A stretch of 63,626 nt of DNA, the filler included, from Neolecta irregularis DAH-3 (Eukaryota), in assembly GCA_001929475.1 (NCBI GenBank). It is 8 parts of 8 records of this genome, joined end to end, with 100 filler letters (N's around TTAATTAATTAA, not from the genome) between each part and the next. Parts side by side here need not be neighbours in the genome. Positions count along the whole stretch, not along the records: positions 1 to 17,730 come from LXFE01003563.1; 7 more parts are not named here. One strand, written 5' to 3'. Position 1 is the first letter of the stretch; every line of letters starts with the position of its first letter. The position numbers and the translations under genes were made by a program. Below, piece by piece: positions 2,186 to 34,400 of the stretch. The notes beneath the pieces were generated by a model. The model saw only the letters and a list, made by a program, of their open reading frames with translations. It did not search any database and was not told the DNA's origin.

Positions 2186-4092
2186 ATGCCGACCAGAGCC
2201 CATGATTCAAATTGTCATGACACTGCATCTTATATGTTTATTGGGGTTATGGGTTTGTTGGTCTTCTTTTTCGGATTAATAAGAGTTTGGAGCTGTTGGG
2301 TTTCTGGCTATCGGTATGTGGCATCCACTTGAATCAATCAAGTTCCTCAATTCCTTATAGTCTTCGAACTTCAACCCCAAGTCACCGACCGTTAGGCACC
2401 TTGACCTCTTTCTTTCGACGTATTAACTATCGCCAACCCGTGGCTGTTCTCCCATCCGTTGACCGGCTGGTTGTTCTCGGTATCCTTGGCTTCGCTGCTA
2501 TTATATTTTCATTTGCCGAAGTCGAGTTTGCAAAGTCCACATGGATGCTTTTTCTCAGCATACGTACCGGTTACATGTCTGTTGTCGCGGTTCCTACCAT
2601 TCTTATACTTGTCATCAAATTTAACATTATTGGAAAAATTACGGGGCATTCTAATCAACAGCTTAACTATATTCATCGATTCGGAGGCTGGCTTGTGTTC
2701 ATTCTTGCAAGCGTTCATTCTATTCTACGCATCATCTATCTAATCCAGATTGATGACTTTCAAGAACGCTTAAAGACATCCTTCGCGATCAGGGGTGGGT
2801 TCGCCTTATGGGGCCTTCTCGGTTGGATATGTATTTCAAGTGAATTTCGACATCAGGGCTATGAATTTTTCCTTGTACAAAAGTTGTTATCCAGTTTCGC
2901 ATTCCTTATTTTGTCGATTTTCTTTCACTTGCCAAAAGCATGCGCCGCGTACATCTTTCTCGGACTAGCGCTCATTAGCACAGATCAGCTTTGGCGGCGT
3001 AGTCGAATGTTGCTGAAGAATATCCCGTGCTCAAGGGCCATGATCGAACCATTTGGAGAAGCGACAAAGGTTACGGTCGAAACCTCACACATCGATTGGA
3101 AAGCCGGCCAGCATGCATACATTTTGATTCCAGAACTATCGCTGTTTCAGTCCCATCCATTCACAATATCATCTCGAAAGAAGCTCGAATTTATGGTCCT
3201 TTCAAAGCATGGATTTACGCGGAAGTTACTCGATCATGCAAAAGTATCAGTGACTTGTCGAGTCCTCGTGGACGGTATGTATGGGCATGCTCCGAATTTC
3301 AAACAATTTGGTCAAGTGATGCTTATTGCCGTTTCCACGGGTGCCTCGTATACAGTTCCTATATTCGAAGACATCCTTCAGTCTCTCAGCTGCGTTCGTC
3401 GAATTCACTTCGTGTGGATCATCAAGCTGAGCGAGAGCATTGGATGGTATAGCGAAACGCTAAAGAACGCAGCGTATTCTGCAAGGAAGCTTGGGGTAGA
3501 TGTAAAAATTTCGATCTACGCTACCAGAGAACGAGAACTCGAAAAGCCGTATTATCAGACCATTCTTCCCGCTAAACTAGCTAAAAAGAAGCCTAAACCC
3601 CACCTTCAAGGTTATATATTTACGGTAAACGAACTGGAATTATCACCGGAAGAAGATGTTGCGCCATATATTTATCCCAGCTCTCGCAATATCGCATTTA
3701 CGCCGCCTCGCCAGCCCCAGCTTGGTCATAAAAGCTCCTTTGAAACAGAATACTTTGATCTTTATCTCAGCCGGTCTCAAACCTTTCGCTCTCAATCCAT
3801 AAAATCAAATGTAGGCGACATGAGAAACGCGGCCAAATACGCCATCACACCACCAAAGGAACACGCTATACAAGAGCGTGGATTTCGTCCGATAAAGGGC
3901 CAATCTTTGGATATCCCGTATAAAAAAGGTCGTCCGTCGATACCAGACCTGATTCGAGATGAAGTATCGGAAAGCCCTTATGGAGAAATTGGGATGTGCT
4001 TTTGTGGAAGTGCAGCATTGGCAAGACAAGTCCGCAATACAGTCTGCACAACCCAAAAACAAATATTTCTACATGTCGAAGGGTTTGATTGA
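2186..4092 (+). CDS. Ferric/cupric reductase-like transmembrane oxidoreductase (FRE family), 2 exons
   Basis: ATG 2186, intron 2314-2360. Motifs: HR..G.......H helix, YEFF, FAD motif HPFTI, DGMYG, CFCGS, C-terminal HVEGFD. Confidence 0.85.
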
Positions 4093-4200
4093 CTACTTGT
4101 AATAAAGTCCATGTAAATATACTTTGTCAGTATATTTTGAGGTGTCAGTTTCCAGAGAACTCATTCAACTCCACCTAGGCCTGACTGCTTGCAACCAACC

Positions 4201-5040
4201 ATGTCTATCAGATCGACTTCAATATCACGTCTTCCAGATGGTTCTTCTTTTTCCAGTAGAAATTAATATTGAATTCAAAGGTCTGCCACTGGCAGCTTCT
4301 GTGGATGATGCACAAGTATGGCATCCTCGGCTCTACTTTTCTAAACACCCAAGGCTGAAACAGACCTTGCAGAATACAAACGCCAAATCAAACTCATCAT
4401 CCGGAAACTAACTCCGACATCGGAGCCTCGGGCTTCGATCGAGTCAGGGCCTTATTACATACAGTATGATTAATATCCCTGTATCAACTGATTCCAAGCT
4501 ACCTTGTTGAGAACAATATCTGCTATACAGTCATCACAGACAGATCTCTTCCGAGAAAGGTTGCTTTTGGATATATGCAGGATCTCGCGAGCGAGTTTTA
4601 CAGTCAGTTTGCTCAGGAGATGGAGAACCCTCGCTTAAGAGCCTATGCATTCGTTCAGTTCGGCACGATATAACGATAATTATCACCCTGACTTGATAGA
4701 CTCATATATGCATACAAAGAAAAAGGAGTACCAAGACTCCAGAAATGCGAATAACTTGGACAAATTAAATGCAGATTTGCAGGATGTTACAAAAGTAATG
4801 ACGAAGAACATCAAAGATCTGCTAGAGCGAGGAGACTCTTTAGATCGTAGGATTCTTATTCTTTTTGATTGCTAATGAGTAGGAATGTCTACACTGTCAA
4901 GTTCACTTAGAGATGAAAGCGCAAAATATAGGAGACGGGCTCGAAACATCAACCTTCAAGCTTTGTTAAGGCAGTGGGCTCCTCTAGGGGCAGCAGGATT
5001 GTTTTTCTTGATTTTTATTTATGTCAAGTTCTTTTGGTAA
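4201..5040 (+). CDS. SEC22: ER-Golgi longin R-SNARE Sec22 (multi-exon)
   Basis: Spliced product MSIRSTSISRLPDGLPLAASVDD...ASIESGPY...NLDKLNADLQDVTKVMTKNIKDLLERGDSLDRMS...C-terminal TM ending VKFFW*. Confidence 0.93.
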
Positions 5041-5130
5041 TAATTGCATAGGAATGTGCTCTGGATCACACTTGATCGGCATTCAGTTTCGAGGATCTTG
5101 TACTATCTAACCCTAACCATATATGAGATT

Positions 5131-6184
5131 CTATAAAAACAAATCCTCATCTGGGTCTTCTTCGTCAAAGTCATCTGCTGAATCGGGATCGTAGTATATC
5201 ACGCCCAGTTCGCTACTGGTTTCTGCATTGTCAACAACGAAACCTTCCTCAAAACGCACCCTGAGCCTTGAAATGGGGTAGCGTAACACTTTCTTTGGCC
5301 TTCTTCTGCTCTTCATTCAAGGTCAAATTGAAGGTTGTAACAGTTTCCCAATCTTGTTCCTTTGTAGGGATCTCGATCCTCTCTACTTTTAGTTTCTGAA
5401 AAACACTTTTCTCAAAAATATATTTCTCAGATACTCCGCGTCCGCTCTTCCTTCTCTGTTCTAAAGTAACAATACATTTCAATCCGTTCGAACCTTTTGG
5501 GACGACTATCCCTTCAACATCACGCTCGATTTCAATAATTGAAATCTCAGCTCGAGATTTCGCGAAAAGCTCTTGTTGGTAATGTATATAGCTTTCCGTA
5601 TGGATAATTGACGTAGATAATATTGACAGTTCTCTATCAGCAGGCGGTGAATACGGCGGTCGAGCGATGTTGACGTCGAGATGGTATATTAAAACAACCG
5701 ATAATGCTTCAAAAATCAGAACATTATCTGCAAAACACCTACGTCTTAGTTTTAATAAGCGAGAAAGGAAAGATGTTAGTATCGATGAATCCTCTAACAA
5801 AATTCTGGTATATGAGCTAATTGTGATGATAAACTTTTTTCCGTCTGTCTAAGGTTAGTAATGCATTAATTATCGCAATACCATTTGTGAATGATTTTTT
5901 TATCTCTGAAACGATATCCTCGGGAACCCGGTTACGAATCACCACATCGGGGATGTCAGTCTTCCTTTTCGATCCTGTAGTTTCGATATGCACAACTTGA
6001 AACCCGCTATTCCAAGTCACTGTGATTAATGAGTATCATCATACGCGTTTTTCGCTCTCTTCTGAAATTCATAAAGTACAGGAATACCACTCTGAGCGAT
6101 TGTATCGAATATACTCACCAGTGGCGAAGGGTTTTTAAAGTTGAGCAGAGTTTCAATCAGCGAGGAATGGTGTTGAACGGACAT
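5131..6184 (-). CDS. ELP5: Elongator complex subunit 5 (Iki1/Hap2), multi-exon
   Basis: N-terminal SPLVSIFDTIAQSG segment. Diagnostic C-terminus TTFNLTLNEEQKKAKESVTLPHFKAQ...IYYDPDSADDFDEEDPDEDL. Confidence 0.85.
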
Positions 6185-7195
6185 GTCAAAGTTTCCATTT
6201 TCTCGAAACCTGAATGACAAACATTTACAATCATCTTCCGATGAGATCTTTGCTCAAATATCTCAGATCTCGGACAATACTGACGCTTTCAGGGTGGATC
6301 AAGCATTTTGGGGTGTCAACTCAAATGCTTAAGTAGTGAAAAACTTTTCCATATCTCGAGAACTTTTGAATTGAAAAATGAGCTGGTTTCTGCTTTCTCT
6401 TGATAAACTTACCCATGGGAGTTCTCGGGAAGTTGAGGGTATATAGCAAGAAGGCAAAAGCAATTGAAAGCTATATATATATTGCTCTGACTGCGGTCAA
6501 ATCAAATGTTCTAGTAGAGTGCAACATGATAGAGTCTCACTAATCGAGGTATCAATAATATTTTTGCAGTACAAGTAACAGATATGGAAAAAGACGATTA
6601 AGTGTCAAGAATCTAACCTTTTGTTTCGACAATGAATGTCTATATCTCGGCCCCAAACTGAGATGCACAATGAACGAATAGCCTTGGATCATATAACGTT
6701 TAATCGGCCTCCAGGGAGTCGCACGTTGTTGATTGGCGCAGATGGGGCAGGTTTTCAAAAATTCCAGGATGCTCTGGAGCTTCAGGAAAGACCACGTTGC
6801 TTCGAATATTAGCTGGTAAACGATTAGCTCAACATGGGCTAGCTCGGGTACAAGGAATTGATCCCTTCCGAGAGGGGAACCAAGTATTTCTTCATATCCA
6901 AGACGAATACTTACCGAGAAGAATGTTACATATCTTGGAACGGGTATCATTGATGTGTTGGCATGTCTGAGATAAACCGCCAAGAACAAAAGCAATTAGT
7001 AGTAAGATCGCGAAAACCGCCAATACTTTTCTACCTGTTTCATTGTGCAAGATCGATTTAGACTAGCAGTACATTTAGACACCTTCATGAATAGCTGCAT
7101 CACCATCCAATAGCCAGATCCTGCTTTCAAGAATGACACGTCAGTAACTTTGGATCAAACTGGCGTTATTCTAGTCATCAATTCTTTTTTTCAGT

Positions 7196-8473
7196 ATGTT
7201 TCCATTCTCACCAGCAACCGTTACTGTAACACACACGGTTACTCCTGAACCCGTATACTTTCCCGATTGTCCAGTGTTGGACTATTTGGCGAGGATTTCA
7301 GCAAGTCAATTACCCGAGTGCATCTCAAACTCTGCCCCTGTTTTGATAATTTTAGATTAAGTTTTGCATCCGGGATCCTGGTACCTTTTGTTCATTTCGA
7401 AAGCTCAAATACCCTTAGCTTGGTCAACTGTCATTTCTAATCGTTACATTTATCTTTGTAACTTCGTTCGTATGTGGAACAGCAAAGAAACCAATCTCAG
7501 AATCGGTCGAATTTACAGTAGTGTTCTCGACGGAGAAAAGTTGATCATCTCAGGCACCGAAAGCAGAGAACCTGTCAATAACACCAGAACCGCTTCTCAG
7601 CAATACCATACTTCTCAAGAAAACGAAATACTCCGTTCCCAAAAATGGGAGTGAAAGCTTATGTTGGCTCAACGTCTTGGTTGCTCAAGCATTGACACAC
7701 TTTCGCGATCCCAAGATAAAGGAAGCTATGGTCAATACTTTAGAAAATATTATGAATGGACCTGATAAACCTGGAATTGTGGTATGATCATTTACTCCAC
7801 ATAAACTGATCGCCAAGGAGCATATCAGTATAACAAGACTCGAACTCGGAAATCAGTTTCCCATTATGAGTAATTGTCGTGTATCTTCTTGTGGTGATAA
7901 ATCGGAACAATTGGTACAAAACCGTCATATTGTCACAAGTTAATCCGTATAGAGAGTCCAAATTGACATCGATTTCACAGATTTTATTACTCTGGGCGTT
8001 GAAACAAAGGTCCTGCTGATTGGTGCCCTCCCAATTGCGCTAGAAGTATCTCTCTTAAGATTTAATGGAACGGTAGAGACTATCTGATTATCACCTTTCT
8101 TTACACTTTCTAGATTACTATTGCCTTCATGCCCTCTACAGACTCTATGGATCCTCTTAAACCAAGCGCCTTCAACTTTAATTTCACACCGAAATATAGG
8201 CTTGTCCTCGACGTTCGTTCAGTCGTTGGCGCACGTTCTCAATTCAGAAATATCCCCAAAATCTCCGAACTTGTTGAAGGTCAAATTCGTTCTACTTTCG
8301 CATCGCTATGTGTTGAACCCCAGTTTCAAAAAATTGCCATGCCAGGATTCTGGTCAAGTGAAAAGGAGGGACTTAATCCGTTTACAGTGTTTGAGAGTGA
8401 TAGTTCATTTGAAGCCGAGCTTGGTGAAAGTCTTCGCAAGGCTTCGGCGTTTTTTGGCGAGATCTGGTATTAA
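7196..8473 (+). CDS. Divergent MMM1 paralog (ERMES SMP-domain protein), multi-exon
   Basis: Spliced LSFASGIL|LGQLSFLIV TM segment, ESLCWLNVLVAQ, ELGNQFPIMSNCRV, LPIALEVSLLRFNGT, VRSVVGARSQFRNIPKI, CVEP.FQ.I..P.FW. Confidence 0.8.
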
Positions 8474-8576
8474 TCATTTCTGATAACATGGAAATTTCGA
8501 GTTTTCTTTGACATTTTACCTTCATAAGATGATGATATTTACAAGTATATACATGCATCTAGATATATGGGATGAG

Positions 8577-11198
8577 CTAGAAGTTGAAAGAGCAATTGTG
8601 GATCCGCAAAGAGAAATCATCACTTGCTGTAGCAAGTTGCCACTTGGATGGCTCTGTATGATCCGTCTTTGGTCGCCATTCTACCTGGGTAACAGTACCT
8701 TCATGGCCATTCCTATCCGTAAGATACAGTATGACAAGGTTTACATACGCTATGCCAGACTTCCATAGAGGTTCCCACTTAGATAAATCCGTTATATTGC
8801 ATCCCAGTATAAAGAATTGACCATCTTCAAGCCCAACAGCAAGAATAATGCTACGAGTAAACAAGAAAATCTTAAAGAAAAACGTACCAGTGATTAACAA
8901 CTGCAGGGACAAAATCCACAGCAGTAACAGCCTCTGGAAAGGAAACACCGGCGGTCAATTTAACATCACTCTCTCCAAATTGCCAAATTTTGATCTTTAA
9001 AGAATTCAAGCCCGGTTTAAAAAGTCAAAACATACCATTTTATCTCTCGATCCAGTAGCAAACACTCGTCCAGCACCAATAGGAGCCCAAGCGCAATCCC
9101 AGATAATCCTTGTGTGAGCTTTAGTCTGAACAAACTTTTCAACATATCGTTCCTCTTCAACACGATCATAAACAGTCCACTGTCGATCTCTACCAACGCT
9201 CAACAAAAATCGATCATCCCTAGAAAACCGGATTCGGGAAACAGTTAACGAATGGCTTGCAATTGGCGGTAGAATCTCTTTGAAATCGCTTGTGTTGTAT
9301 AAACGAAGAACGGCGAAGTCAGAGGCTGTTGCTTTACATGCCGATGCTATTATTTTGTGGTCATGAGATACAGAGAGGGCTATCAATTCGTAACCATGGC
9401 CATACATTTTCTCGCGTTCAGGCCATAGAGTGTGTTTTTGAAGATATCCTTCAATTGGTGGTGTATTTAGAGACTCTAGTAGATGTTGAGACTGTTCTGT
9501 GGGCTTACTGTCTGACACTGCTTTGTTTGAGAGACCTAGAACTGGGACGCTAGCGGAATCTGGAAGAGCAGTCTGCAAGTTAGCATAGCCCTCAAGTAGT
9601 TGGATAGACCTCTGAAGCGAGATCAGTGATACTGCACACATTCTTCAAGAGATGGGCTACGCATCTTGGTAGATCAAACACCCGGATAACCTTTTCATCT
9701 GCACCACTGGCGAACCGACCTGCGGAAATGCAGGATATACAATTGATATCATAACCATGAATCTGCGGGCGTGACATTTCGTACCAGATTTCACCCTTTG
9801 AAGCCCAAAGCCTTGATGTCTGGTCCAAACTAAAATGATTAGTAGAACTGAAAGAGAATTATATACCTCGTAGTCAAAAGATATCGACCCTTTCCTTCCC
9901 AAGAAACCCCTTTGACCTGCTTAAAGTGCCCACTCGATGTAACAATAGAAACCCACCTGTCATCTCTACGTACCCACACATGCCAACAGCCACCTCTGCC
10001 CCATGAAGCAACTGACATTCCATCGAGACCCCAAAGTCCACCCCAAAGCCCACCGGCGCTTCCAGTAGCAGTAGTCGAGCCCTTCGAAGCGCTGACTTCG
10101 CCGAGTCGACTTGTGCAGACCCAAATTCCCGTCTGAATGTCTGGAGACCAAAAGATAAGGGATGAATCTGCGGAGGCGGTCAAGAGACATAGCTTGGGGC
10201 TTGGTCTCCAGGAGACTGTGAAAACCCAGTCGTCATGGCCTGTCAATAAAGCTTCAAAGGTGAAAGAATATCGAGAATTGTCGAGACTGAAATACTGGGC
10301 TTTGCTCGAGAATATCGAGTCTCTGTTATAAATGAATAGGACCAAGAAGAAGACATACGGACTGGGTAACTCTAGGGGGCTTTTTACAGATCCCTGCTCT
10401 TGTTTAATCCTCCATATTCTAATATATCGATCTTGGCTACCACTTGCCAGTAACAAATCACCACGTTCATCCTTCTCAAACTTGAAATCTAACCCCCTAA
10501 TCCAATCCATATGTCCTTTCACACCTATCTTTCGAGTGAAATGAATAGTTGGAGACGATGCGTATAGTTGTATTGAGTTTGATGACCCGCCCATAGCAAG
10601 TAGCAACGAGGATGAGTCTGGTAAAGGGGATATTGATAACGTCAAAGCATTGAGATTTTCAAGTTTTATAGTTTGTAAAAGTGTAATTTCAGGAAGATTT
10701 GAACAAGAGTCGCTGATTTTCCATAATCGCACAGTCGAATCTGCTCCAGCAGTGCCAACCAGTGAGCCAAAAGCAGTGATTGTGATGATTGAAGCATCAT
10801 GCTCTTTGATAAATGAGATATTTTCGAGCTTCACAAGTCACTAGAGTAAATTAACGGCAATGTACATGGTCATCACTCGATTTCCAGAACCCCAGGACTC
10901 CGTCGGTTGCGCCAGTAAGAAGAATATCATACGGGAGGTCTTTGAGCTGCACAAATTTTACTGCTTTTATTGTTGCGGAGTGACCTTTGTTGAGTTTTCT
11001 TATCCCGGGTAATTTTTGATCCTATAAAATTAATATTTACCTTTACAATTCCAAAAACACCAAAGGTTTGGTCAACGCAATACTTTTGTTGGCTGCAAAG
11101 GCGAGTATTCCAGTTCCGACATTCCAATCCGCGGCATCAGGATTTCTATTCGCAGCGCAGGCGTAAAAAGTTGTTGATAGTTTGAAACTCGAGATCAT
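8577..11198 (-). CDS. ELP2: Elongator complex subunit 2 (WD40), multi-exon
   Basis: GHMDWIRGLDF, LLASGSQDRYIRIWRI, FEALLTGHDDWV, RPQIHGYDINCI, SGADEKVIRVF, HTLWPE.EKMYGHGYE, HTRIIWDCAW. Confidence 0.95.
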
Positions 11199-11270
11199 CG
11201 GAAGAAATCGGAATTTTTCCAGGTGGTGTGTCAACCGGCGCGAATCAAAAGTAATTGACTGCCAGCCCAC

Positions 11271-11685
11271 ATGTCGCAAAATAACGAGAAACAAATAGAA
11301 CCACCAAAGCCACAAAGCAAACCGGCTTTCTATGACGAAGTCGAAATTGAAGGTATTTTCTAACCACCAAAAAGACCTTACTCCACAGACATGGAGTGGG
11401 ACGATGAAGTCGAGGTTTTCTATTACCCATGTCCCTGTGGTGATCGGTTTGAAATCACAAAGGTCAAATCTTTCTAGGTGAAAGCCTCATTGTTTTAGGA
11501 TGATATGGCTGAGGGGGAAGATATTGCTCGGTGCCCTTCTTGCTCTTTGATTATCAGAGTCATATTTGACCCAGTATAATTTCTACTAACTCCGCGGGGC
11601 TGACATTGAGCGGGACTTTGAGGAGTATGACACAGATGAAGGAGATGATATCCCCATCTCTGCACCGACAATTTCTGTTTTCTAA
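11271..11685 (+). CDS. DPH3: CSL zinc/iron-finger protein Kti11/Dph3 (not in ORF track)
   Basis: Spliced [58 protein letters not shown]. The end is at 11579 if the last putative intron is not spliced. Confidence 0.93.
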
Positions 11686-11804
11686 GTCGAGAAGTATGGT
11701 GTTTTACGAGTGGCATGGTTTTTGTTGGATTTTTGGGATTGTCTATACACGGATATCATTTTATTTAGGCAAAAGGTGACCAAGGTATTCAAAAATATAA
11801 AAAT

Positions 11805-12417
11805 CAGTGTGTCTAACCTCCCGCCCGCCGGAGCCTGCGGTTGAGCAGATTTCTAAGCCCCCTGACCTTCCCAAGAGATCTGAACCACCCGCCTGGAAAG
11901 TGCTCGCAGTTGGGCAAGTTGGATAAAGGAAACATGATGGATGATAAAGTGTACAATATGGAATATTGTTTCAAATTCGGTTTCACAAGGTATATGTTGT
12001 TCCCTTCTTTATATACCCCTCTTCTTTAATGCCATCCATATCCCTTAAGCCACCTGCCATATTGGTAAGAATATACCTCATATTCCTACAATGTCCAACC
12101 ACCCACATGGCCAATGAATGCAGAATGTGAAAGAGTATTCAACCAAGCAGAAATACTGATTACTGATGAAAGAAATCGTCTTGGGGATGACACAGTTGAA
12201 GCAGATAAATTCCTGAAAAACTGACTGCTTAAGGGACTTTTTGTGGATAGTCATGAGGAGAAATAATAGCAACTGAAGAATTGGCCAGATAGAAATTAAT
12301 TTATATTAGCAATTATTGTTGTTTAGTGAATTCGGGATTATGTAGATTAGTAATTGCTGCCGCCCGCACGAGGGTCTCTGTCGGCGGCGGGCGGGCGGTT
12401 GGACACAAGAGTCACGG
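11805..12417 (+). mobile_element. Internally deleted hAT element with 8-bp target-site duplication
   Basis: Starts CAGTGTGTCTAACC and ends GGTTGGACAC(aagagt)CACGG, flanked by ATAAAAAT at 11797-11804 and 12418-12425. Contains the remnant AECERVFNQAEILITDERNRLGDDTVEA, homologous to 620-730. Confidence 0.85.
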
Positions 12418-12479
12418 ATAAAAATTCTTTCAAAGAAATGTGGATGCAAGCTTTGATCCGTGAATACAATATTTCGGAG

Positions 12480-12841
12480 TTAACCACCATGCAATGTACT
12501 AATAAATACAATCTCATCTCGTTCGCAGAGTTCATATTCTTCTCGTCCTTCCAGCTCCCAATCTGCATCATTGACAAGAACCAATATCCCGGGAGTCACA
12601 GTTCCTTCTTGAGTGAACAGAGCCGCCCGTCTATCTTTTAAATGATTATTCCGGAGATATTCAATCAGATGCGCGATATTGAAAGCTTTTCCGTCCTTTG
12701 TTCTGGGTAGTTCTAGGTTTAAATGTCTTATATTTTGGAAGAGCAGTTCTAATCCTCCTCTAATGCGTTACTTCCCAGAAAACTCGTTTTGGGATACCCA
12801 AATTCCACTTTAATCTTTATTTTCTTCTCCTCGTTTGCCAT
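12480..12841 (-). CDS. URM1: Ubiquitin-related modifier / tRNA thiolation sulfur carrier Urm1 (2 exons; not in ORF track)
   Basis: MANEEKKIKIKVEFG|GGLELLF...GTVTPGILVLVNDADWELEGREEYEL...IVFISTLHGG*. Intron 12760-12797. An in-frame upstream ATG exists at 12898. Confidence 0.96.
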
Positions 12842-12952
12842 GTTCTCCCCCAAGTTAGCATCTTTTGCAAGGAAGTTATCTTTTGGTGGTGAGACCATTT
12901 GCGTCGGGTCTCGGAAAAACATCACTCGAACTTCATCTTTTGAGAAAAACAG

Positions 12953-15699
12953 ATGGGTGAATATCGTACCCCAAGAAAACGCAATAGAGGCGAGTCTATT
13001 ACTCTATAATTCTTCTAATTAGATTTCAGACAATGACGATGATGGCCGAGATCGAGATTCGTATAGAAGACCCCGAATATCGCACGCGGAGGAAACGTTG
13101 AAGCGCATCAAACGAGATTTCATGTGTATTGCTGATCCAGTATATTATCCCAAATGAGCTTTATAGTTGACCGAGTAGAGAAATAAAGTTCGACTGGACG
13201 ATGATATCGCATATGTTGCAAAAGCACTCGCCGGTGACTTTTCCCAAAACGATATAAAAGCCGGCTTTCTAAGTCATCTCCGATCATGGTTCCTTCTTTT
13301 TTCCCTGCAACTAACAACCTAAAGTGTTCTTGAACATCCTTACAAGACTCCACACTTTGCTGCTGTGATCGCTCTAGCCAATTCTCGGGAAGAATCTATT
13401 GGGAAGGAGATTTTAGAATACCTGATCATTGCGACTCAAGCGTATCTTGAACAGGGACAATGGCGGAACGTGAAGCTCATGCTACGGTTTCTGGCTTGTT
13501 TGAGTTGTATGATCGAAGGAGAAGGGATTATTGAAATACTTGAAGGACTCGTCAGTGCTGTGGAAAGTTCGACAACAGACGTACAAGGGCGATCGGCACT
13601 CTTTTCTGAGTAATTAATACTAACGCAATAGGGATATGCTGATGAGTTATCTCGAATTGTTTTGTTGACTCTGCCCTTTATTGTTGTTGAATCAGCGGAC
13701 ATATCGCTCAAGGGGATGCTCGACGGCATTGTAGACCGGCTTGGACCATACTTGAATAAAAGGACCGTGGATCTGCGGTTAATCACGCTTTACGATGCCT
13801 CATCTGCGCCATACGAACAGATTGATGCAAGTACACTGTTTAATTCTGCTAATCTATCAGACCCTCGAACTGCTCTGGAGGCAGATCCAGAATCTCAAAA
13901 GATCTAATTGGGAACTCCATTTCATCTCGAGGCCCTGGACATTCTTCGAAAAAGAACTAGCGGAAGGCTTAAAGCATAAACTTCCCGAACTCTCAATCCC
14001 TGCTGCTTTTGAGACATCAGGCTTATTCAGTCTTCCAGAACCATTCTTCCGAGTATATTACGACCAACCGGTTGAGGTATCTATTGATTTGTCCAAACAT
14101 TGATTCCAAGATTGTCCCTCCACCGACAAATATTATCTCCTCCCTGATGCGCGACATTCTTCTAGATACAATCGATATTTTTGAAGTCAACCGAAAAGAC
14201 GCTGCAAAAGTATTCGCTGATCTCGATGTTTACTTTCCTCAAGATCTTTTCGCACCACGAGGGACTCCAGTCGATAAGCTACAGTCCCCAGATATTTCAT
14301 CGACCTGGAAACAAGAAGATACTGTTGTTGAAGCCATTTTTGCAAGATTGTTCAAGTTACCAAATCCCCCTCATCGAGAAGTTTATTATCATTCGCTATT
14401 GATGGAGTTATGTATGGTCGCTCCAAAAGCTCTTGCACCAAGTTTTGGACGAGCTATTAGAGCTATTTATTCAAAGTTAGCGATCACAGATGGTGAGGTT
14501 GCGTATAGGTTCTATGATTGGTTTACGCATCATTTGAGCAATTTTGGATTTTCTTGGAAATGGAATGAATGGTATATTTCTTGTCATAAGTAATGGTTTA
14601 CTGGTATAGGACTGGCGACATTGCGCTTCCAGAGAGTCATCCGCGACGGGTGTTTATTCGAGAAGTCCTTGAGAAGGAGTTACGGCTGAGCTATCACGGG
14701 CGTATTCAAGGAACCATACCGGAAGAATATCAATTCCTAATTGGTGATGAACCACCCAGTACCAATTTCAAATATGCAAATGAAGGTTTGGCTTAGTTGC
14801 TGTATTGTTTTTGACATTTGAAGACGAAGAACTTTACCCTGAAGCATCTGCTCTCTTAGAATCCATGCGTCAAAAGAAAGACCAATCCGAGATCCTTCAA
14901 CAATTGGTCCATATTGAAACCCGAGCACGGGAAGAAGGTCTTGAAAATCCTGAATTTGAATCTCTCGAGATTCTTGTCCAGATTGTCCTTTACTTGGGCG
15001 AAATGTCATTTAGTCATGCGTTAAACAATATCGAACGAAACCTCCAACCATTAATTCAGAAATGTAATGCCAATCAACAAGCCAGACGACATACGATAAG
15101 TGTCGTGATGGATTTCTGGAAATTTCAGCCTTCAATTGGGGCGATTTTATTGGATAAATTGCTAAACTATACTGTCTTAACGCCGTTGAGTGTTATCGAG
15201 TGGCTGTTGGTTGATTCAACATTCGCTGATCGTGCATTCGCATGGGAAATTTCATTCAAGACAATTGATAAAGTCAACGCTAGAGTAACTCGCCTAAGCA
15301 CCCAAGTATCCAACCTTGAAACTCAAGAAATGCAAAATGAACCTCAGCGAGAACATTTCGAACGGGCAAAAAAGACCTTAGCTGGAACTCAAGCTGAGCA
15401 GAAAGAGGTTTTTATTATGCTCGTCGAAAAATTTCCTGGTTTGATCGAAAAGCTGAAAGAGAAGGATGATAGCGAGATGTCAACTGAGGATGGTGGCCCT
15501 TGGGGCGAATGGTGGGGCAAACAGTGGATGAAAGTCATTTTTAGACGGGTAATGCCAATGCCAGTATGGCCTGCTGATGGTCTAGTATTACAAGGAAGTT
15601 GGAGAGCTTGCTGTCCCTCTCAAAGAACTAGCTATTAAGAAAGGTTCACCAGATTACCTCAGAGAAGTATTGGAACAAGTAGCTGTATTGTCACGGTAA
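12953..15699 (+). CDS. CBC1: Nuclear cap-binding complex 80 kDa subunit (Cbp80/Sto1), multi-exon
   Basis: Basic N-terminal NLS RKRNR...RRPR. MIF4G-like motifs YYHSLLMELC, APSFGRAIR, RFYDWFTHHLSNFGFSWKWNEW, KELRLSYHGRI, SFSHALNNIER. Confidence 0.9.
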
Positions 15700-17228: not shown

Positions 17229-17774
17229 TGCGGTAGCTTGAAGGTTTCCGGCAATCCTGAAAGCGGATAACCTTTGCCAAACAATTTCTTATTGAAGAAA
17301 TCCCATGATATAGGATTTGTTTGAAACTCAAACCGAAGTTGATACTCTCAAGACATATATCGTATATCACGTGTATAACCAGTCGTGTATCAAGGCACTC
17401 TACTGTCATAGACATCGCCCAGAAAGACATCAAAACTATTCGGGAATACAATGTAAATTTTCCATGTCACCACCTCTTTATATCCTTGCTTCATAAATAT
17501 CTGTTCTCAGAGGCGTATAGCGGTCGCCTTGACTTTATGGCGCAGTATACTCGACTCCACATGTGGGGACACGACTTTACCACAACTTCGCAACCCCCAC
17601 CAGCTTGCCACCGCCACCGCCAAAGTATCGGAACCGGCACAAGCAGCAGCAAGNNNNNNNNNNTCAGCTTGCCACCGCCACCGCCAAAGTATCGGAACCG
17701 GCACAAGCAGCAGCAAGGGTCGCCGATCACNNNNNNNNNNNNNNNNNNNNNNNNNNNNNNNNNNNNNNNNNNNN

Positions 17775-31454: not shown

Positions 31455-34400
31455 ATGGCTTCGTTCGATCCCGGAACGTACATTGCATCTCCTTTTGCTG
31501 CACAATGCTGACTTTTTGTGCAGTGTATGCTGGTTTCCCGACGAGAAAGAAGGATGGGTCAGTTATCACGTCACAGATAAACAGGTCGATGGGGATATTG
31601 TCAAGCTTACCCTACTTCCTGATAACGAGAATGCATATCTGCCAGAATGGAGCGTGTCTAAGCGTGATAGGAAGGACCAGAACAAAAGGTAGAAACAACT
31701 GTAAGCGAACTCCAGATTGCCAATAATGGAAAACTCCCGCCTTTACGTAATCCCCCCATTCTTGAAGCTACAGAAGGTGCAAAAATCTGCTTAATTGAAC
31801 CTGCAAGTAACCTTTGTAGATCTAACGAATCTGTCATATCTAAACGAACCCGCAGTCCTCAACACCATCAGAACCAGATATGCTCAACTACAAGTACTGA
31901 TACGTCTACTAATCTCTCTTACAGTTAGATTTACACCTATTCTGGTATCGTTCTTATCGCGACGAATCCTTTTCAGAATATGTCTCAGATATATTCGCAG
32001 GATATCGTTCAAGCGTATGCCGGTCGACGACGAGGAGAGCTCGAGCCCCATTTATTTGCTATTGCTGAAGATGCTTATCGATGTATGCTCCGTGATAATG
32101 CAAATCAAACAATCGTCGTATCAGGTGAATCAGGAGCCGGCAAGACTGTTAGCGCCAAATATATAATGCGTTACTTTGCTACGGTTGAAGATCCAGATAA
32201 ACCGCCAAAGAAAAAAAAAAGTACTCTGACCAACGGAACAAAGAAGGGTGAGATGAGCAAGACAGAAGAGCAGATTCTTGCAACCAATCCGATTATGGAA
32301 TCATTCGGCAATGCAAAAACCACTCGAAATGATAACTCCTCACGGTTCGGAAAATACATAGAAATCTTGTTTGACACAGCATCCGAGATCATTGGTGCAA
32401 GGATACGTACTTATCTTCTGGAACGATCTCGGCTTGTGTTTCAACCCAAGATTGAACGGAATTATCACATATTCTACCAACTTTGCGCGGGTGCACCCTT
32501 TGGATTACGAGCAGAACTTGGTCTAGGTTCAGTTGATGATTTCTATTATATGAAGCAAGGTGGCGAGCCAGTCATCCATGGAGTTGATGATGCCGCGGAA
32601 TTTCGGTTGACTTGCGAAGCTTTAGATACAATCGGAATCAAGTCCGAGCGACAAACACAAATATTTCGGATTCTTGCCGCATTGCTTCATGTAGGCAACA
32701 TCCCTATTCAAGCTTCGCGTACAGATGCAACCTTATCGCCTGACGAGTCGAGTCTGGTTAAGGCATGTGATCTCCTGGGCCTCGATGCTGCATCGTTTGC
32801 TAAATGGACTATCAAGAAACAAATTTCCACTCGAACGGAGAAAATCATTACAAATCTTAGCCAGAAGCAAGCGATTGTTGTACGAGATTCTGTCGCCAAG
32901 TACATCTACTCTAGTCTTTTTGATTGGCTTGTTCGAACGGTAAATGTCAGTCTTGCAGATGACCAAGTTCGGAGTCGTGTACATACATTCATCGGTGTAC
33001 TTGATATCTATGGATTTGAACATTTCCAGAAAAACTCATTTGAGCAATTTTGCATCAATTACGCCAACGAAAAGCTTCAACAAGAGGTACTACTTTCATG
33101 ATTTCGAACTGCACTCATTTTAAGTTCAATCAGCATGTATTCAAGTTGGAGCAGGAAGAATATGTTCGTGAACAGATCAACTGGACCTTTATCGATTTTT
33201 CAGATAATCAGCCCTGTATAAATCTCATCGAAGCGAAGTTGGGAATTCTCTCTCTTCTTGACGAAGCATGATTGGAAAATTGGGTTTAAGACTGACAATG
33301 TAGGAAAGCAGACTACCATCTGGAACCGATGATACCTGGGTCACTAAACTGTATCAACACTTTGCAGTCCCAAAGCACGAAAAGTTCTTCAAGAAGCCCC
33401 GATTTGGAAAGACAGCTTTTACTGTGTGCCACTACGCTCTTGATGTCACATACGAAGCCGAAGGGTTCCTCGAGAAAAATCGGGATACTCTGCCCGACGA
33501 ACACCTTGAGGTTCTCATCGCCTCAGAAAATAACTTGCTCAAAGAATGCCTTCAGGTTACAGCTGAAACGCCGCCAAAGGTTTTTTTTTCCACACATTCT
33601 TGTCTGATCCTCAGGCGCCCGAAAGTGGCATTCCTAAACGCAGCGGCATGAGTAGCAGGAAGCCCACTCTTGGTTCTATTTTTAAGGGTTCACTTATCGA
33701 TTTGATGACAACTATCGACTCTACAAATGTCCACTATATCCGATGCATTAAGCCCAATGAGGCTAAAATTGCCTGGAAATTTGAGCCCCAGATGGTTTTG
33801 AACCAACTTCGGGCATGTGGTGTTCTCGAGACTATCCGAATCAGCTGTGCGGGATTTCCTTCACGATGGACATATGAGGAGTTTGCTACCAGATATTATC
33901 TCCTTGTCCGTTCAGGTCTTTGGAGTCCTACCATGGATATCAAGGAGCTATGTACCGGAATTCTGAAGCATACTATTACCGAGGAGGATAGGTTCCAGAT
34001 GGGTCTTACTAAAATCTTCTTCCGAGCGGGAATGGTAGCAGTCCTTGTTACTTCAAGAGCTTAACAAAATTTAGCTGGCTTACCTTGAAAGACGACGCAG
34101 TGATCGATTGAATGCATGTGCAATCATTGTGCAGAAGAATATGCTGAGATATTTATATCGAAAACGATATATTCAAATCAAGAGATCGGTTTTGGCTATT
34201 CAGGCTTTGACTAGAGGATACATTGCTCGACAGAAAGCCAAACAAATGCGAGAAGATAGAGCTGCGACCAAGATTCAATCAGTGTATAGAGGATGGAAGA
34301 CCCGCCAATCGTACGACCAGGTCCGCCTTCAAATTATCAAATTTCAAGCAGGTCCGTTATTTGTCTCTGAAAAAGCTGATTTGAAGTTGCTCGAGGTTGT

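Follow-up and report, generated by a model that had tools for sequence, protein, structure and literature searches.

Why should four genes for a single tRNA modification stand together in a fungal genome? This question is raised by a 63,626-nucleotide stretch of DNA, filler included, from Neolecta irregularis DAH-3 (hereafter, the window), in which intact orthologues of ELP5, ELP2, KTI11/DPH3 and URM1 all lie within positions 5131-12841, or about seven gene slots. The four genes belong to the pathway that builds 5-methoxycarbonylmethyl-2-thiouridine at the wobble position of tRNA (mcm5s2U34), in which ELP2 serves the cm5/mcm5 branch and URM1 the 2-thiolation branch. With a probability of roughly 55%, the locus is a real and expressed mcm5s2U34 neighbourhood, built on an old ELP2-URM1 pair that is probably co-regulated and that was enlarged in the Neolecta lineage.

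Identity and Transcription of the Four Genes

The initial annotation of this DNA placed the four genes within about 7.7 kb of one gap-free contig, and their physical linkage is borne out. The window DNA is nuclear and fungal, with introns of 36-40 nt, the interval from 5 to 13 kb is free of N, and the nearest N run begins at 17654. Additionally, ELP5 (OLL22266.1) and URM1 (OLL22270.1) share a 17,730-bp contig in the public DAH-3 annotation, in the same order as in the window and with accession numbers that differ by four, and identity to the public N. irregularis DAH-3 proteins is 100% for the URM1 exon and 99% for the ELP5 exon. From 2 to 16 kb, the order is a ferric reductase gene (+), a SEC22-like longin/synaptobrevin gene (+), ELP5 (-), the relic of an ATP-binding cassette (ABC) ATPase gene (+), MMM1 (+), ELP2 (-), KTI11/DPH3 (+), a hAT miniature inverted-repeat transposable element (MITE), URM1 (-) and CBP80 (+). 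The coordinates are collected in Table 1.

Two sequence runs bear on transcription and assembly, namely X1, a DNA run taken as Logan contigs, and X2, a run that is on record as 'DNA?'. Because X2 contigs lack the GT..AG segments at predicted introns, X2 is read here as transcript-derived. Intron-less X2 contigs cover all four genes, and one of them joins spliced ELP2 to spliced KTI11, so that all four genes were probably transcribed in the sample from which X2 was obtained.

The four gene calls of the initial annotation all passed family-profile and best-match tests. Two exons of ELP5 matched Pfam PF10483 with E values of 3e-27 and 5e-5 (96.3 bits, curated cut-off 22.5), and the sole match in PDB was Elp5 (8asv_E, 7.5e-14), which places the gene in the Elp5/Iki1 family. 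A word-indexed search for ELP5 homologues returned only the Neolecta protein itself, and an exhaustive search was used in its place; a hidden Markov model (HMM) built from 112 ELP5 homologues scored three window exons at 1e-42, 8e-11 and 3e-10. The solved splice model encodes 301 aa. Three of its four introns (5224-5260, 5707-5742 and 5845-5881) are spliced in X2, and the first intron (6007-6044, 38 nt) is retained in the X2 piece listed. The public model of 313 aa retains the in-frame 36-nt intron at 5707-5742, which is spliced out in X2.

ELP2 is full length and has Elp2 as its best match by a wide margin. Two of its exons matched the PDB structure of Elp2 (5m2n) at 1e-49 and 2e-54, while the next WD40 proteins other than Elp2 reached 5e-16 and 2e-22, and the window gene aligns collinearly with Saitoella Elp2 (804 residues) from residue 1 to 800. 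Among the 120 ELP2 matches listed, those named by their source are Elongator protein 2, and the others are unnamed or have generic names. Introns 10323-10358 and 11021-11059 are spliced in X2. URM1 is equally well identified, with an E value of 3.5e-31 against PF09138 (107.9 bits, cut-off 21.8), Urm1-type proteins for all eight PDB matches (best, 1.4e-26), and the Urm1-type C-terminus ...STLHGG, in which Gly-Gly directly precedes the stop. Its intron (12760-12797) is spliced in X2. The public model of 134 aa contains the 107-aa model and starts 27 codons upstream (12842-12922) of the ATG that fits the homologues.

The fourth gene, KTI11/DPH3, is divided by introns 11353-11388, 11463-11498 and 11574-11610, all of which are spliced in one X2 contig. 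Exons 2 and 3 each matched PF05207 at 3e-9, above the cut-off and on adjoining parts of the profile (8-31 and 32-55), and all seven PDB matches of exon 2 were DPH3/Kti11. The motifs YPCPCGDRF and CPSCSL are present, as expected of a Kti11/Dph3 protein. A J domain would mark Dph4 rather than Dph3, and a coding sequence of only 101 aa leaves no space for one. With three introns in its coding sequence and a further one in its leader, the gene is not a retrocopy.

ELP2 and KTI11 form a head-to-head pair, taken here as genes on opposite strands whose 5' ends lie within 1 kb of each other. The leader intron of KTI11 (11226-11265, +, GT..AG) is spliced in one X2 contig, from which an ELP2 intron is missing too, and because this intron is seen in X2, the leader exon of KTI11 overlaps the ELP2 start codon (11198). 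The spliced leader contains no in-frame ATG upstream of the KTI11 start. An 11-mer, TCATCGGAAGA, at 6234-6244 (-) and 11195-11205 (+), lies on the sense strand of both ELP5 and KTI11, about 50-75 nt 5' of their start codons. It was rejected as not significant, because with one mismatch allowed the number of matches was reached in 20 of 100 shuffles, and it is not used here.

Table 1. Features of the cluster and its surroundings in the window (CDS, coding sequence; ORF, open reading frame)
Feature	Position	Strand	Basis
ELP5/IKI1, Elongator subunit 5	5131..6184; CDS complement(5131..5223, 5261..5706, 5743..5844, 5882..6006, 6045..6184)	-	PF10483, PDB Elp5, X2 splicing
ELP2, Elongator subunit 2, double WD40 propeller, full length	8577..11198	-	PDB Elp2; Saitoella collinearity
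ELP2-KTI11 inter-ATG spacer, head-to-head	11199..11270	.	72 bp, sequence reading
KTI11/DPH3, CSL zinc ribbon, 101 aa	11271..11685; CDS 11271..11352, 11389..11462, 11499..11573, 11611..11685	+	PF05207, PDB DPH3/Kti11, X2 splicing
URM1, ubiquitin-related modifier and sulfur carrier, 107 aa	12480..12759, 12798..12841	-	PF09138, PDB Urm1
Soluble ABC-type ATPase gene, relic	6634..6968	+	weak PF00005 match; ABC ORFs of 6 loci
Intron of minus-strand spliced transcript, antisense to ABC relic	6813..6851	-	X2 joint 6812>6852, ends CT..AC
MMM1, ERMES SMP-domain protein	about 7361..8473	+	PF10296 on two exons, E 3e-10 and 1e-21
hAT-type element, non-autonomous, MITE-like	11808..12407	.	23-nt terminal inverted repeats, 91% complementary
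URM1-CBP80 spacer, then CBP80/NCBP1	12842..15650	+	191-bp head-to-head spacer, ATG 13033; PF09088 and PF09090

Conservation of the ELP2-URM1 Pair

Fungal ELP2 loci were retrieved from metagenome contigs by ELP2 protein alignment, with flanks of up to 10 kb. The 80 loci most like the window, out of 337, were analysed; Basidiomycota, Mucoromycota and budding yeasts fall outside this comparison of context, and the set contains no close relative of Neolecta. When searched with the window proteins by tblastn, 63 of the 80 loci contained URM1, and in 62 it is the immediate upstream neighbour of ELP2 and is encoded on the other strand, head-to-head in the sense defined above. The exception is L005, where URM1 lies 3 kb downstream of ELP2. 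If only loci with at least 1.5 kb of upstream sequence are considered, the pair is present in 53/62. Grouping ELP2 at 95% identity gives the pair in 40 of 54 clusters, and at 70% identity in 16 of 24. The gap between the two start codons is short, with a median of 170 bp and a range of 135-277 bp (27 of 34 inspected loci, those with the first exon of URM1 placed). In the named genome of Loekoesia, URM1 and ELP2 have the consecutive locus tags Q9225_002458 and Q9225_002459.

An ELP2 tree (FastTree, with named references) places all head-to-head loci within the crown Pezizomycotina clade, alongside the Eurotio-, Lecanoro-, Dothideo- and Sordariomycete references. URM1 had no match in 17 loci, of which nine have too little upstream sequence and eight are roomy. 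Of these eight, L004, L032, L034 and L067 fall in a Taphrinomycotina-like clade near Saitoella, L074 and L077 stand beside the Pezizomycete reference, and L030 and L045 are inside the crown; L005 stands beside the Orbiliomycete reference. The Neolecta ELP2 branch itself is long and has no resolved position in the tree. At five of the loci without the pair (L004, L005, L032, L045 and L077), no U34 genes were found among the neighbours, which are GH63, SDR, mitochondrial carrier or ABC protein genes or have no match.

The ~170-bp spacers were also considered as a source of promoter motifs. The k-mers enriched in 34 ELP2-URM1 spacers (GTCGAGTTC and similar) proved to be the unannotated first exon of URM1 (..VEF) and not regulatory sites, and none of this type occurs in the Neolecta spacers.

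Conservation extends to the other side of ELP2. Of the 38 loci whose downstream flank is long enough, 20 have an intact ABC gene 2-5 kb beyond the ELP2 mid-exon, and the ABC relic of the window is on the expected side and strand of ELP2, with MMM1 now between the two. This relic, which the initial annotation overlooked, retains only the N-terminal ~85 residues, Walker A included. Full-length ABC ORFs from six loci align to the window solely at 6636-6913, which corresponds to ABC residues ~17-101. By the author's reading, Walker A of the relic is clean if a 35-nt GT..AG segment is removed.

Further genes accompany the pair in some of the related loci. In 19 of the 80, a tRNA isopentenyltransferase gene (PF01715, MOD5 type, i6A37) lies two genes downstream of ELP2, past the ABC gene, for example at L006:13362-14957 (+), where the order URM1-ELP2-ABC-MOD5 occupies about 7 kb; this gene is not in the window. 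In 17 loci (e.g., L062:6936-8312, +), a gene past URM1 and on the same strand as ELP2 encodes 6-phosphofructo-2-kinase (6PF2K). Public proteins of ~1,300 aa that combine 6PF2K and Elp2 (P0027, P0040 and P0052, from two Aspergillus species and Drechslerella) look like gene models fused across the opposite-strand URM1.

Origin of the Cluster in Neolecta

The window and the Orbiliomycete-like locus L005, with URM1 (-) at 7582-8018 and CBP80 (+) at 10159-11602, have the head-to-head adjacency of URM1 and CBP80 in common. Together with the ABC relic downstream of ELP2, this indicates that Neolecta inherited the ELP2 neighbourhood and then rearranged it. The core of the cluster would thus be an old linkage of two genes, one from each branch of the pathway, followed beyond ELP2 by the ABC ATPase gene. 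URM1 would then have been inverted in the Neolecta lineage, so that it now faces CBP80, and KTI11/DPH3 would have taken the head-to-head place at ELP2, with a very short inter-ATG spacer and overlapping 5' ends. ELP5 is now found on the far side of MMM1 and the ABC relic, and a hAT MITE has inserted between KTI11 and URM1. Common or overlapping bidirectional promoters may couple the dosage of the two branches, which act on the same U34, and the interleaving of transcription units may lead to selection against breakpoints between them.

Chance alone is a poor explanation of the cluster. In a model with 5,500-7,000 genes and 16 or 25 pathway genes, set sizes that are themselves assumptions from general knowledge, the expected number of four-gene clusters in 6-7 slots is 1e-6 to 4e-5 per genome, and for the seven slots of the window it is 3e-6 to 4e-5. 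If an inherited ELP2-URM1 link is taken as given, the probability of two more members within 5-10 slots is 5e-5 to 8e-4. With the same assumed set sizes, four non-homologous genes of one pathway in about seven slots are more than chance would give, where three close together would be enough for a functional cluster, and in this respect the description of the locus as similar to a metabolic cluster was apt. It was less apt in other respects, since the arrangement is not tight, is interrupted and contains just 4 of the 16 or more genes of the pathway.

A broader and more tentative proposal, which on present evidence seems rather unlikely, is that ascomycetes maintain a neighbourhood for modification of the anticodon loop. 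A bidirectional promoter of ~170 bp, common to ELP2 and URM1, would be selected to keep mcm5 and s2 in step, and recruits would be specific to lineages, with KTI11 and ELP5 in Neolecta and MOD5/IPPT in Eurotiomycete- and Lecanoromycete-like loci.

Evidence Against and Alternative Explanations

Several observations weigh against the reading of the locus as an enlarged, co-regulated neighbourhood. Because the cluster was singled out after the fact in a very large scan, the probabilities per genome make it look more surprising than it is. MMM1, the ABC relic and the MITE, which are unrelated to the pathway, interrupt it, and no further wobble-uridine pathway genes were seen among the other large window ORFs tested. 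The window also lacks the conserved head-to-head form of ELP2 and URM1: both genes are on the minus strand, in tandem, with KTI11 and the MITE between them. Among relatives, the pair is absent despite sufficient room from nine loci (L005 and the eight without a URM1 match), and these include the Taphrinomycotina-like and Pezizomycete-like loci that are closest to Neolecta's depth. In four named Orbiliomycetes, ELP2 and URM1 are on one contig but 11-15 genes apart. Conserved linkage in relatives, the initial annotation's own test of a selected arrangement, supports that reading for ELP2 with URM1 only. KTI11 was found near ELP2 in 0/80 loci by relaxed tblastn and by a motif scan that recovered the window copy, and ELP5 in 0/80 by the 112-homologue HMM, in both cases within flanks of at most 10 kb, many of them shorter; both genes are additions specific to the lineage. 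Conservation in related lineages is thus that of ELP2-URM1 and not of the whole cluster, and nothing indicates that the enlarged four-gene cluster is old or maintained.

The main rival is a neutral history combined with a short spacer that is hard to break. ELP2 and URM1 would have become adjacent by chance in an early ascomycete, the ~170-bp spacer would offer no harmless breakpoint, and KTI11 and ELP5 would have arrived by random rearrangement, with no regulatory meaning. Such a history deserves serious consideration, even if it is somewhat improbable. Some pathway pair is adjacent by chance with a probability of about K(K-1)/N = 4-11% (K of 16-25 and N of 5,500, again assumed set sizes), and the neighbourhood is visibly scrambled between lineages. 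The restriction of the KTI11 and ELP5 additions to one known lineage, the intervening sequences and the post hoc choice of the cluster, all described above, fit it as well. However, the low probability of two additional members given the pair is difficult to reconcile with random rearrangement, as is the landing of KTI11 exactly at the head-to-head position of ELP2. Moreover, the adjacency of URM1 is retained more often than that of the ABC gene in this set of loci (53/62 versus 20/38).

It is highly unlikely that the cluster is a unit of co-inheritance for susceptibility or resistance to toxins, in which a single locus would switch off both mcm5 and s2, the determinant for zymocin-type anticodon nucleases. 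General knowledge of zymocin resistance, which is found in mutants of ELP genes, KTI11 and URM1, is what favours this explanation; however, all four genes are intact and transcribed, and no toxin or immunity gene is present among the window ORFs tested. Least credible of all is an assembly artefact in which the KTI11-URM1 junction was mis-joined through the high-copy hAT MITE, since, although the X1 contigs, which match 5000-12148 and 12177-13100 with zero differences, end and restart within this repeat and no single piece listed spans the whole stretch, a 67-nt X1 unitig covers 12124-12190 with 0 differences, ELP5 and URM1 share a contig of matching length in the public DAH-3 annotation, and conserved synteny predicts URM1 beside ELP2. 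The window and public assemblies may share reads and are thus not independent.

Neighbouring Genes and Other Contents of the Window

The MITE sits between the 3' ends of KTI11 and URM1 and contains a weak PF05699 match (12069-12224). Its word depth is 3,800-13,100 compared with 384 in the flanks, or 10-34x, indicating a multi-copy family in the Neolecta genome. A hAT dimerisation domain was also found in an ORF at 161-757 (199 aa). Beyond URM1, a 40-nt GC-AG intron (12990-13029) in X2 belongs to the leader of CBP80. Because the CBP80 leader exon extends back toward URM1, this head-to-head pair may also overlap.

MMM1, which has no role in the pathway, separates the ABC relic from the 3' end of ELP2. 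The X2 intron antisense to the relic is of low depth, and a minus-strand ORF of 147 aa opposite the relic has no Pfam match. Between 16 and 63 kb, the ORFs tested match the protein kinase, PfkB-family carbohydrate kinase, NAP1, SET1, eIF3m and SAC1 families. By eye only, the ORF at 31929-33098 was recognised as myosin-like, and ten more large ORFs in this part of the window have no Pfam match. The window contains 666 N in 19 runs over 17654-63359, mostly as twin 44-N runs 12 bases apart. These runs look like a product of masking or scaffolding, not a biological feature, and all lie well away from the four-gene cluster.

Relation to Known Arrangements and Significance

The counterparts of the four genes in budding yeast are presumably on different chromosomes. 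The initial annotation knew of no described cluster of this kind, and no publication describing the Neolecta cluster or the ELP2-URM1 linkage was found in a literature search to which supplementary synteny tables were outside the scope; the part of PMC11705076 that was consulted is silent on both. The arrangement is not unique in its entirety, since ELP2 and URM1 are widespread neighbours among ascomycetes (62/80 loci).

Two kinds of known system are comparable. Conserved divergent pairs with bidirectional promoters include the fungal histone genes H2A-H2B and H3-H4, according to the part of the source considered (PMC6900853). Like these, ELP2-KTI11 and ELP2-URM1 are head-to-head with very short spacers (72 bp and ~170 bp, respectively), and ELP2 and URM1 are partners in one process and are retained together across classes. 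In contrast to the histones, ELP2 and URM1 do not form one complex but belong to two enzymatic branches that meet on one nucleoside, and in the window the partner of ELP2 has been swapped from URM1 to KTI11. The second comparison is with the metabolic gene clusters of fungi, of which the DAL cluster is an example. GAL1-GAL10-GAL7 is another, as described in the part of PMC7898345 considered. The Neolecta cluster resembles these in that non-homologous genes of one pathway stand side by side and a core was enlarged by recruitment specific to a lineage. Unlike them, it is interrupted and incomplete, its pathway is neither catabolic nor one for secondary metabolites, and no gene for a pathway-specific regulator was found in the cluster. 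Additionally, we know of no toxic intermediate in U34 modification that would favour linkage.

The mcm5 and s2 halves of the modification are interdependent in yeast genetics, where losing both has much more severe effects than losing just one. If the reading of ELP2-URM1 as an old, co-regulated pair is correct, a conserved promoter common to two genes, one per branch, would be the first evidence at the genome level for coupled dosage of the two branches. The URM1-ELP2-ABC block also provides a synteny anchor across ascomycete classes. It aids in finding the small, intron-split genes URM1 and KTI11, and it flags the public 6PF2K-ELP2 gene models as probably mis-fused.

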